From Octopus vulgaris (Eukaryota), in assembly GCA_951406725.2 (NCBI GenBank), contig OX597814.1, forward strand, positions 53,010,001 through 53,074,000: a stretch of DNA of 64,000 nucleotides, written 5' to 3'. The notes beneath the pieces are model-generated. The model was not told where the DNA came from. It was given only the letters and a program-made list of their open reading frames with translations, and ran no database searches. Position numbers and translations under genes: made by a program. Numbering within the stretch: the stretch's first letter is position 1; every line of letters begins with the position of its first letter. This document shows positions 21,252 to 43,909 of the stretch, piece by piece.

Positions 21252-21290
<39 letters not shown>

Positions 21291-21298
21291 TTTCGTTA

Positions 21299-21520
21299 AA
21301 GTTGCAAAATTATCACAAAAACTGTTACTCAGAGTTTCACGTTCCCATTTTTCGGACAGTTGTGATGAAAACTGAATTAAAAGTATTGAATTTTAATTCG
21401 ATTTTCATCACAACTGTCCAACTAATGGGAATGCGAAACTCTAAATAACAATTTTTGTGATAATTTTGCAGCTTCAATAAAAGCATATTCAATTTTCTTC
21501 ACCTTGTTTTGCACTTATGT
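21299..21520 (+). repeat. Fold-back element (~175-nt palindrome plus 3' tail) with a hammerhead-like motif on each arm
   Basis: 21299-21382 is the inverted complement of 21391-21475. The terminal module and tail are shared with the 22755-23340 element. Inserted after (TA)n. Confidence 0.85.
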
Positions 21521-22722: not shown

Positions 22723-22754
22723 ATGCATATATATATACTTTATGAAGAAGCAGC

Positions 22755-23340
22755 AAAAATATCACAAAAACTGTTACTCAGAGTTTCATGTTCCCGTTTG
22801 TTGGACAGTTTTGTTTAGAGTGGAACAAGAATGAGGTTATAAGCAAACATGTACAATAAGTTTGAATGGATACACATTTGTAAATGGTTTTGTTTCATAT
22901 GTCCTTTCAACTAAAGATCTTTACAATGACCGGTTGCATGCAATGAAAAATTTTGGTATAAAATCATCTTATTATAACCTTAAATCAAAAATATTTTTGA
23001 TTTAAGGTTTTCTTCAATTTTATAATAAGATGATTTTATACCAAAATTTGTTCATTGCATGCAACTGGTGATTGTAAAGACCGTTAGTTGAAAAGACCAA
23101 TGAAACAAAACCATTTTCAAATGTGTATCCATTTAACTAATTGTATAGTTTGCTTATAGCCTTATTTTTGTTCCACTCAAAACAAAAGTGTCTGACGAAT
23201 GGTGATGTGAAACTCTGAATAACAGTTTTTGTGATATTTTTAATGCGTTTTAATACAGCATATTACTCTACCTCTGGTATTTGAGTACTATTTTTTCCCC
23301 CCTTTTTTTTCCCACTTTGTTTCGCGTTTATGTGATTACT
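22755..23340 (+). repeat. Fold-back element (~485-nt palindrome plus 3' tail) with a hammerhead-like motif on each arm
   Basis: 22755-22975 pairs with ~23020-23240. A perfect 34-nt palindrome sits at 22976-23009. CTGACGA at 23192 and GAAA at 23209. Flanked by (CA)n/(TA)n. Confidence 0.9.
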
Positions 23341-34830: not shown

Positions 34831-34860
34831 CCATAAACCAACATGTCTTGGAATATTTAC

Positions 34861-35157
34861 CAAAATCACAAAGTATGGAAAGCCGGCGGTGCCAAAATCA
34901 CGAAGTATGGAAAGGCGGCGGTGCCAAAATCATGAAGTATGGAAAGGCGGCGGTGCCAAAATCACGAAGTATGGAAAGCCGGCGGTGCCAAAATCACGAA
35001 GTATGGAAAGCCGGCGGTGCCAAAATCACGAAGTATGGAAAGCCGGCGGTGCCAAAATCACAAAGTATGGAAAGCCGGCGGTGCCAAAATCACGAAGTAT
35101 GGAAAGCCGGCGGTGCCAAAATCACAAAGTATGGAAAGCCGGCGGTGCCAAAATCAC
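34861..35157. repeat. 32-bp minisatellite, 9 full units plus a partial unit (caaaatcacgaagtatggaaagccggcggtgc)
   Basis: Units start at 34861, 34893, 34925, 34957, 34989, 35021, 35053, 35085, 35117 and 35149, with only 0-2 substitutions per unit. Confidence 0.97.
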
Positions 35158-40200: not shown

Positions 40201-41100
40201 AACTGGGCTAAATTTTTTTAGTGGAGAAAATGTTTTTATTCCCTCTAAGTTAACATTTCATTACAACTGGTTTTTCCCTTTTAATCTTTCAATGTTTATA
40301 AAATTAGAACCAGTAAGAAATCCACTACTCACAGAGGAGGTCACATGGTTAGTCAAAAGTAATTTTTACAATAGAGGAGAAATTTTCATGTGTGGCTTAA
40401 TTGAAAAGAGGAATTTTAAAGGTTGTGATACTCTTTCCTATGAGTATTAGCAACATACTCCTATAATCCATAGCTAGTCTATGAATTCATCTAACTGAGA
40501 ACTTAGCCATTGTGTTATGATGCTCATTGCTTCATTGAAAATGGTGATGATAACAGCACTGATAATGCTGTTGTAGACAGTTTTGCTTTACCTACAGTGT
40601 AACTGCTGGTCTTAATCTTTTTCCGTTACTGTTAGAGACAGTATTAAGGTTAGAAAATTATTTTAGGGTTGAAAGTATAATTAGTGAAGAAAAAATCAGT
40701 GGAATTGCTATTTGTTATTTTTGATTGAAATCATCAAACACTTAATATTTATATTAATATTAATATATTCAGTGCTTTTAAAAAGGTAAACTTGAAATAG
40801 TTGTTAATAAAATGACTAATATTGCTTTCATTTGTTTAGCAAATATTGGTCAGCTCAGGGTATGTTTTGGTCTCATGCTGACCTCATCTGCAAAGCATAG
40901 TCTATACCATACTTGCTGAAGTAGTGATGAGAGAATCATTAAGTAATAACTTGCTTACTTTCATTGGATGAATGATTTCATTACATATGAGTTGAGACTT
41001 TCACATTAATTTAGGATTGAAGATGTTTCATGGTAAAAATCATTTTGATAATGTTGTGTTCATTAGAAAGTTAATTAAGAATAGAACTATTTTTATTTGG

Positions 41101-41427
41101 GAATTACGGAGATGTGCTTGCATAGCAAGTGAACTGATCTGAGATCGGGTGCTGAAACAAAAACAGTTGCAGCATGGAAGGTGTTTATAAGCCATTTAAA
41201 ACACACACAAAAAAAACGTTAAATTGTCAAAATATTTTCATCACTTTGAAACCGCAACCTGTTCTCTGACAAAATTTAGTGCTGCATCTTGAAATTTTGC
41301 CAGCGGGCTGGTTGCAGTTTCAAAGCGATGAAAATATTTTGACAAATTAAATTTAAATGTTGAAGTGAATCTAACAGTTTTTGTGTGTTTTTAGATGGCT
41401 TATAAACACTTTCCATGCTGCAATTGT
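41101..41427 (-). repeat. Fold-back element (~265-nt palindrome plus tail on the left) with a variant hammerhead-like motif on each arm
   Basis: 41163-41276 is the inverted complement of 41292-41427, with a ~25-nt gap on the left arm. Each arm has GAAA-ATAT-TT closed by TTGTCA/TGACAA. Confidence 0.85.
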
Positions 41428-43909
41428 ATTTTTATTTGATTTTCCTAATTCAAAAAACTTCAATTAATGATTAGACACAGATATTTTCAAATATGTAGAA
41501 TCAGTCTCATTTGCTAATTTATCACTAATATCATGAAATATATAAAAATGAAAAATAAGAATGCTCCTCACCTGAAAGAACAAACAAACAAACAAGATTA
41601 ATGATGAAGTTAGTTACAACCAATAAATAGTAATTGCATGTTGTGATAGAAATTTAATTAGAGGTGAATGTTCTTGTTAGGCAATAAAGTAAGTTTTCAT
41701 CAATTAGAGAAAATTAAGCTTAAAATCTTTAACTGAGACAAATAATTACAAGTAGAGAGATTAATTTAAAGCTCTTTTGAATCAAGACAGTTATGGGACC
41801 AATGGTATGTGATAGCTCTTAATTAGTGACTTACATTTCTTTTTATTTGATTTTTTTTAGTAAGAAAGGAAGGACTGTATACAAAATATGTCCACCTAAA
41901 CAAGGAGATTAAAATAATTATGGCTCACAATAACAATAACAATAGTATGAACATGATAAACAACACCATCTGAAATGAAAAACACAAAAAAAAAATCACA
42001 TGAGATCATGTGGTGCTCTGGTGTATTTTAAATTTAGAATGAAATATCTTTGATCTTAAGTGTAAACAGCAACAATATAATTAACAAAAACAATAAAGAC
42101 CACTGTCACATGAACAATATCTTCACCAAAGCCCAAACCACCAACACCGCTACCCTCAAACTATCAGCTTTTAAATGACCAATAAGTGACAGCAATAATA
42201 GTATCAGCTTGGTTGCAATGTCTGTAGTTACATATGTTGTATGCCAACACAGTGGGTGTGTGTCTGTATGTGAGCAGAGCGTGAAGTTTATATGGATCGA
42301 GTTAGAAGCAGAAGGGGAAAAGTACCAATCATACAGTTCTTCTTTCCACCTCACTCCTTCACTTTTTCAGCTTCTCATATCCATTCTTACACACATAAGA
42401 ATTTGACAGCTCTTACTATTACAATTCAAGTTGTTTGGAAAGAAGTCATTAAGTGGTCATAATGCAAATAGGAAATTAAAAGGATTATACTGCATATTAA
42501 ACTTGATGTTTTAAAAAGGCTTGATGTGAAAGAAAACAATCAACCACCTTGCCAAAATATTAAAGTTTGCAATGTGTACAATGAGAATAATACATGACAA
42601 TAAAAAGAAAATTAAGTCAAGTGCTCAAGAAGTTACTCCTTCAACTGCTTAGACCTTATTTTTTCATAGATTTAATGTTTACATGAATCAAAAAATATAT
42701 GGCCAGCCTCTTTCCATGACTTTATAAGTTTTCCACAAGCTGAAAGTCTACATCAAATTCAGAAAGGTATTGTGACACTTGCAAATGATGTAGGGTGTCA
42801 TAGAGAATGATGTGGTTGACATCCTGCTGTCCTATAGAGAAAGTTTATTTATCAAGGAGTTGATGTTAGTTATTTGAATAAAAGCAAGCAGGTAATACAG
42901 ATGTGAGAATATAGAAATTCTAACAACTACACTTAAGTTGACAGGAAAGAATATTGCTAAAGTGTTGGAAGGTCTGAAAGTTTTTATTGATGACATCCCT
43001 AATTGTGAAGGTAACATAAAAATTACAAAACAAGTTATAGAGAGTTCAGTTCCTGCACTGAACTTTCATCATCATTGTTTAATATGCTCCTTCCATGATG
43101 GCATGGGTTGGATAATGACAGGAGCTAGCCAGGTAGAAGACTGCACCATAATTCTGTGTCTGTTTTGGTATGGTTTTTACGGCTGGATGCCCTTCATAAC
43201 ACCTACCACTCTGCAGGGTGGGCTAGTCTATTTTATGTAGCACTTGCACAGGCGAGGTCAGTTTTGGCATGATTTTCACAGCTGGATGCCCTTCCAAATA
43301 CCAACCCCTTTACAGTGTGGACTGGGTGCTTTTTAAGTGGCACCTGCATTGGCAAAGTCACCAAGTATGTTTGCAAGACTAGGAATTTTTGAGAGAGGAG
43401 TGGGTATTGGAAGAAATGATTATGTGTCAAATGTTAGAGTGTGAAAGAGAGAGAGAAATAGATGCCTTGCTGTAGAGGAGGTACATGGTTACCCAGCCAG
43501 AGAGAGGGAGAGAAAGCGAGTGAAAGTTAACAGGAATAAGGGCAGAAACAGATGTACTGAAGAGGAGGGATATGGTTACCTAGAGAGAGAGGGAGGTTAA
43601 CAAGAAACCTGCTGCAAAGGAGATACATGGTTACCTAGCCAGAGGTAGGAGCAAAAGAAGGAGGGAGAGAGAGTGACCAAGAATGAGGGCAGAAATAGGT
43701 TTGTTTCTGTAGAGGAGATACATGAAAAGGGAAGATCAAGGGAAAGAGAAAGTAGGAGAATGTAAGAATAGGAGAGGGATGATAGTAAGTGCCAGGGAAT
43801 GGTGATCAGGGCATAGATGGGCTGGTAGATTCAGGAAGAAAGAGATGAATGGTGGCAGGGTATTGCCAAGATATATAGAGGGGGAGGGGACACGGGAAGA
43901 GATAATGCA

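Follow-up and report, generated by a model that had tools for sequence, protein, structure and literature searches.

A fold-back insertion in the Octopus vulgaris genome read as two head-to-head ends of a Penelope-like element with a G3-C8 hammerhead core

A 64,000-nucleotide stretch of the Octopus vulgaris genome (contig OX597814.1; hereafter the window) contains a fold-back structure whose two arms each resemble a hammerhead ribozyme with the bases at core positions 3 and 8 exchanged (G3-C8 for C3-G8), which raises the questions of what kind of element carries this motif and whether it is a working ribozyme. The answer favoured here, with a probability of roughly 0.82, is that the hairpin consists of two head-to-head pLTR copies of a Penelope-like element (PLE) with reverse transcriptase (RT) and GIY-YIG domains, bearing a minimal type I hammerhead in which C3-G8 was swapped to G3-C8; intact copies would probably cleave slowly as dimers, and the copy in the window is predicted to be dead.

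The fold-back belongs to an insertion of 327 bp (41100-41426) flanked by a 12-bp target duplication (Table 1); the span first proposed for the element (41224..41346) was too short. An inverted repeat of 59 nt (86% complementary) runs across the arms, nested in a larger one, and the entire fold-back is predicted to fold as one hairpin (-62.2 and -68.5 kcal/mol; z = -10.0 and -11.7 against shuffles); single arms fold no better than shuffles (z = +1.08 and -0.65). The long arm forms the left side of the element and, in the alignment of genomic copies, has a deletion of about 22 bp near 41213. Elsewhere in the window there are two self-inverted elements of a different repeat family (22733-23263 and 21285-21488; 83% and 82%), which have their terminal 85 or so bases in common and (TA)n runs on their left and gave no hammerhead match in a scan of the window, and a tandem array (34860-35157) with multiples of a period of about 32 bp that are 95-97% alike.

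Table 1. Features of the fold-back insertion (window coordinates)
Feature	Position	Strand	Evidence or remark
Target-site duplication, left copy, 12 bp	41088..41099	+	100% repeat with 41427-41438; abuts the element end once the last tail bases are taken as ORF sequence (L179 match reaches 41096-41100)
Target-site duplication, right copy, 12 bp	41427..41438	+	100% repeat with left copy
Long arm: pLTR end, hammerhead motif, ORF start and ~56-nt tail	41100..41289	-	Aligns to 5' pLTR-ORF junction L179:5720-5933
Decayed first ~30 codons of PLE ORF	41100..41195	-	ATG 41195-41193; same sequence enters long frame in L179, ATG 92 nt after G3
Left hammerhead motif; core G3-C8, changes U4A and C11.1U	41223..41273	-	Sequence read; family majority
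Left arm, 5' half of motif	Stem I 41273-41267; core GAGAACA 41266-41260; extra G 41259; stem II 41258-41254/41244-41240	-	
Left arm, 3' half of motif	GAAA 41239-41236; ATAT; TT 41231-41230; stem I' 41229-41223	-	
Head-to-head junction, 5' ends of both arms	41278..41291	.	Junction varies among copies, flips relative to long arm
Short arm: inverted pLTR end without tail, ATG 41395-41397	41290..41426	+	Stops at arm position 150, where short arms commonly end
Right hammerhead motif; retains G3-C8; changes U4C, A6G, A7G, A9U, C11.1U and one stem I mismatch	41296..41346	+	Sequence read
Right arm, 5' half of motif	Stem I 41296-41302; core GCGGGCT 41303-41309; extra G 41310; stem II 41311-41315/41325-41329	+	
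Right arm, 3' half of motif	GAAA 41330-41333; ATAT; TT 41338-41339; stem I' 41340-41346	+	

Re-reading of both arms agrees with the original prediction that each keeps G3, G5 and C8. Neither has a complete type I core, however, and the arms gave no match when the window was scanned with positions 3 and 8 free; on energy evaluation the hammerhead stems of the right arm are worth only -0.9 kcal/mol. With core changes in both arms, a failed motif scan and burial in a hairpin of -62 kcal/mol, the motif of the window copy is predicted to be dead. Stem III had been described as a palindrome suited to dimer pairing; it is palindromic, but the part that can pair is only the 6-mer AATATT (positions 15.1-16.1), because the A and T on either side of it belong to the core as positions 14 and 17. 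Nor can the fold-back's own two arms be dimer partners, because each strand has one sense motif, which in the hairpin fold is paired to its own antisense.

A search of the genome with the centre of the element gave 1,971 first-look candidates, from which 29 distinct copies were fetched. Their majority sequence begins with stem I and GTGAACA, followed by a single additional G, a stem II of 5 bp, GAAA, ATAT, TT and stem I'; the majority core of the family is therefore GUGAACA-like, as expected from the proposed ancestral core G-N-G-A-N-C-A with a UU cleavage site. In the family majority and in young copies alike, stems I and II, N3-U-G-A-N-N8-A, GAAA and U16.1-H17 occur in the order of the minimal PLE type I form, and the AATATT palindrome is kept. 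Rfam models found no hammerhead family in the window region or in a young copy, only sub-threshold hairpin matches. A 19-mer with G3/C8 has 6,459 exact matches in the genome (0 for the reversed control), and among 19 copies changed at both positions in this genome-wide search none had the canonical C3/G8; seven had A3-U8, a double transition that was not counted as covariation. Of 117 arms sampled, 113 have G3 and 110 have C8; they were chosen by BLAST score, so that conservation is inflated. In the same 117 arms the CpG columns of stem II fall to 64-90% and are the weak ones, in keeping with the CpG decay suggested earlier, and one stem I position has an A-to-G variant in 20 arms that retains a U-G pair. 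On contigs of four organism labels, no other core letter exceeds 8%, except for the two private changes of the query. When the old subfamily of short copies is compared with the young one linked to the ORF, none of 42 stem and core columns differ, versus 18 of 160 others (Fisher p = 0.028), and loop II has been rewritten.

The structure of the insertions was examined in 77 copies, from which duplicates and three complex loci (L010, L102 and L107) were excluded. Inverted pairs account for 49 of them, and 28 were scored as solo arms, one of which was mis-parsed. In 26 of 27 copies found with the centre alone, one arm ends at positions 199-206 of the 206-nt reference, and 32 of the 49 short arms end at 143-151, so that the arms have two fixed 3' ends. 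The 5' ends are variable: truncation hits either arm independently, and the junctions vary and flip relative to the tail. The tail is confined to one end, being on both arms in none of the 27 centre-found copies and in one of the 49 inverted copies. Copy flanks are 82% AT, and the target duplications vary from 8 to 16 nt; exact duplications of at least 10 nt were found in 22 of 50 copies with non-microsatellite flanks, versus 0.4% of 2,450 mismatched pairs. The long/short inverted layout is the same in kilobase-long ORF-bearing copies (L163, L177, L181 and L182). Of the 28 solo copies, twelve begin at positions 0-3 of the reference, some 15 nt ahead of stem I, and copy number drops roughly tenfold just upstream of those starts, a rough figure that compares different patterns. 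Short head-to-tail tandem units with a hammerhead each, as in non-LTR retrozymes, were not found, the copies being solo or head-to-head; a tandem triple on C2 (L159/L160) and one in L161 are repeats of short decayed copies and were rejected as autonomous units. As for the complex loci, L010:1052-1767 is a doubled element in which two fold-back units, flanks included, are mirror images on either side of a core of (CT)n(TA)n(AG)n, and in L107 (G000:C20:54253019-54253086) a truncated arm follows a few telomere-like CCCTAA units and continues into the ORF start.

An upstream extension in two copies (a 20-mer with 611 occurrences in the genome) led via a microsatellite-rich spacer to the end of a GIY-YIG frame and to RT motifs. 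A protein search found more than 100 genomic locations, with open frames of up to 1,025 aa; seven of ten protein-search loci and all seven larger stretches (L177-L183) have the G3-C8 motif intact, about 1.0 kb beyond the stop; the original prediction had proposed looking for the motif behind an autonomous Penelope ORF, and it is there, behind a frame with both RT and GIY-YIG. The 1025-aa frame has a C-terminal GIY-YIG domain (PF01541, E 1.8e-5), visible RT motifs (DKS, GGAIG and YVDD) and a CX3CX2C linker, and its profile matches a solved RT structure (E 7.9e-5). Pfam RVT_1 did not match the frame, so that the RT call rests on motifs and profile; Pfam gave nothing above cut-off for partial frames and no family for the frame of a sister family (see below) or P0011. 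In L179 the arm continues directly into the frame; the tail of the long arm is therefore the ORF start, corresponding to the first 30 or so codons. The repeat is thus linked to an ORF with RT and C-terminal GIY-YIG, its pLTRs occur as inverted pairs, one of the two arrangements (direct or inverted) typical of PLEs, and in L179 overlap the ORF start, and it has the variable-length target duplications, AT-rich sites and 5' truncation of PLEs. The window copy is an ordinary fossil, two decayed head-to-head pLTR ends of such an element. The linker would point to the Neptune or Nematis clade and fits both. A different young PLE family with an intact 781-aa frame has many copies in the genome; it came from the first genome search for GIY-YIG and was rejected as the partner, since it lacks this arm (one of 30 loci had a partial arm, apparently a chance neighbour).

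Such a perfect-looking fold-back of about 330 bp, present in thousands of copies, might also be taken for a MITE, derived from a DNA transposon and bounded by terminal inverted repeats, that resembles a hammerhead by chance, but this is extremely improbable, since the arms run behind and into the RT and GIY-YIG frame, related PLEs share the motif layout, and solo arms and independent 5' truncation do not suit a MITE. The hallmarks of a MITE, which had been named beforehand as evidence against a ribozyme, were sought and failed to appear: the arms are unequal and the duplications variable, in place of equal inverted repeats and a fixed short duplication, and the link to the ORF together with the duplications rules this reading out. 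That the fold-back is copied whole, as a master non-autonomous element or a miRNA-like hairpin RNA gene, is very improbable as well. Rfam miRNA models do match the hairpin, at sub-threshold scores (MIR9408, 36 bits versus a cut-off of 90), and the two arms of one copy have variants in common (at 41 of 210 variant columns across 33 pairs, or 1.2 per pair versus 0.3 between copies); a single master would not, however, yield junctions that differ and flip relative to the tail, arms that truncate independently or common solo arms.

The origin of the swapped core can be followed in relatives of the PLE. A sister family in the same genome (54% protein identity over 814 aa) has a motif with C3-G8 and the same extra G, at the same place before the ORF start; compensatory stem I and stem II changes accompany C3-G8 in eight of nine loci. 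Its position 9 is C and its stem III is non-palindromic, and the C at position 9 implies that the clade tolerates core drift. C9 in place of A9 is seen in the young sister family, with a 1,312-aa frame and near-identical copies, and in one metagenome relative (L186:7074 and 2476, - strand; L197:2497). Of 41 metagenome PLE loci, three repeat this layout at a distance of 104-164 nt behind the ORF match; two have C3-G8 and one U3-A8, and stem III is palindromic. Other PLE families of the octopus genome (L038-L067 and L159/L160) have U3-A8 cores, so that three of the four Watson-Crick options for the 3-8 pair (U3-A8, C3-G8 and G3-C8) are found in one genome. When 117 loci were scanned with no constraint on positions 3 and 8, there were 79 matches to 17 distinct motifs, 13 of them Watson-Crick, in a covariation set that is small and has related members; three of the four non-Watson-Crick motifs are changed copies of the G3-C8 family, and shuffles gave one match in three rounds. 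The 3-8 pair is Watson-Crick in the G3-C8 family as in its C3-G8 and U3-A8 relatives. Because C3-G8 stands at the corresponding place in the sister family, and either U3-A8 or C3-G8 in other PLEs, the swap is compensatory, and the pattern across relatives and subfamilies is that of a putative hammerhead whose fold is conserved.

Intact copies are likely to self-cleave slowly as dimers. Published minimal PLE hammerheads cleave weakly, as dimers (PMC4209133), and the C3G/G8C change is described as partly restoring cleavage, including in a PLE hammerhead that depends on its protein (PMC11167929; PMC8495972). The stability of the dimer is predicted to be low: the AAUAUU duplex is worth -0.2 kcal/mol and did not form in the two-strand minimum-energy fold, and the best monomer fold pairs G3 with U17 (-14.7 kcal/mol versus -13.3 for the hammerhead stems). 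Copies start at the cut site no more often than expected (56, versus 45 at a control site 7 nt downstream), and among the 77 copies of the structure set no sense arm starts there. Because the start of most copies lies upstream of the motif and does not coincide with the cut site, uncut RNA would be the usual template. In about 6% of the reads of two RNA-seq runs, which carry another organism label, reads in either direction cover the arm and neither their starts nor their ends accumulate at any point, in a library type that shows cleavage ends poorly.

It is therefore conceivable, if somewhat improbable, that the element has the same PLE origin and that its G3-C8 motif no longer cuts, serving instead as a folded handle for the protein, as a means of pairing two template RNAs or as a passenger. 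The copy starts bear no trace of cleavage, stem III is weak, position 9 varies in relatives, and cleavage was reported to be dispensable for insertion of the PLE PAc in vitro, with no RNA-seq reads ending at the site in the published account (PMC11167929). Against loss of cleavage stands the constancy of the motif: although loop II changes, all subfamilies retain U4, G5, A6, A9, G12-A15.1, U16.1, a base other than G at 17 and Watson-Crick pairing between 3 and 8, and the double swap is reported as a requirement of the active fold (PMC11167929; PMC8495972).

For a slowly cleaving hammerhead within a PLE, the following course may be proposed. Transcription would mostly begin a little upstream of the motif, some 15 nt ahead of stem I; at an AT-rich site the PLE protein would nick the two strands at points about 12 nt from each other; and reverse transcription would be primed at two internal sites near the element's own ORF start, at about +92 and at +29 to +36 from the ATG. 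For PAc in vitro, both strands are reported to be primed, with two internal RT starts creating the tail (PMC11167929). A single cDNA would then give a solo copy, and two cDNAs joined at the RNA 5' side would give a fold-back in which just one arm has a tail. Two motifs would be joined via the AAUAUU stem III, trimming multimeric RNA, only where tandem units are transcribed through in one direction, and most inserted copies would derive from uncut RNA. The basis for the two-cDNA route is the shapes of the insertions, which suggest it. The two arms usually came from one source, because arms within a copy share more variants than arms of different copies; at site A, 17 of 21 arm pairs are concordant versus 11.1 expected, and the four discordant pairs, in one of which the arms differ at two bases, hint weakly at two templates. 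The likeness of the arms is also compatible with a single cDNA copied by folding back, or with conversion of one arm by the other at a later time. A bolder version of the proposal is rather doubtful: a natural high-copy hammerhead with C8 for the conserved G8, kept through several subfamilies and four organism labels, would be an active ribozyme whose AAUAUU stem III also holds two template RNAs together, both being copied by a dimeric PLE protein at one nicked site. If so, paired templates at a single nicked site would explain head-to-head insertions with one tail.

Much of this is already known from other PLEs: pLTR hammerheads, opposite-strand pairs, inverted truncated copies and tails have all been described (PMC4209133, PMC8557442, PMC11167929). 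The minimal type I hammerheads of PLE pLTRs (described by Cervera and de la Pena 2014, PMC4209133) have the same type I order, an extra base between 9 and 10.1, a G10.1-C11.1 pair, a short palindromic helix III, close opposite-strand pairs, mostly solo copies and a 3-8 covariant (U3-A8); the family described here differs in its G3-C8 core and in having G as the extra base after A9, where the published consensus is H. PAc, a Poseidon element of Anolis (Frangieh et al. 2024, PMC11167929), likewise has a hammerhead next to the ORF start, a tail between two internal RT starts, AT-rich targets and uncut RNA as the main template, and its engineered C3G/G8C form is partly active. In contrast to the octopus family, its natural core is C3-G8 and its ORF begins inside the motif, as opposed to 92 nt after G3; the CX2-5CxxC linker of the octopus PLE protein is a further difference from PAc. 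EN+ PLEs of the Neptune/Nematis type (Craig et al. 2021, PMC8557442) share the C-terminal GIY-YIG, the CX2-5CxxC linker, (TA)n targets, an inverted 5'-truncated copy beside the pLTR and a one-end tail, which is given as 30-40 nt, versus about 56 nt here. Natural covariation at 3-8 is likewise recorded among core variants, but as U3-A8 and not G3-C8 (Perreault et al. 2011, PMC3088659; also PMC4209133). In the literature searched, G3-C8 occurs only in engineered form (PMC3884650), and natural examples may be listed in supplements or in work on PLE hammerhead dimers outside its coverage. The natural G3-C8 swap family is well supported as real, and is, within the literature searched, the new part relative to the known PLE hammerheads.

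C3G/G8C has been a laboratory rescue mutant of partial activity, and a natural family has spread it to thousands of copies. G3-C8-like motifs are undercounted, because descriptors fixed on CUGANGA and Rfam models miss them. In the short insertions the genome also cleanly records the two internal starts of RT that were reported in vitro for another PLE, and the occurrence of a G3-C8 family beside a C3-G8 sister family offers a ready comparison for what PLE hammerheads need in vivo.
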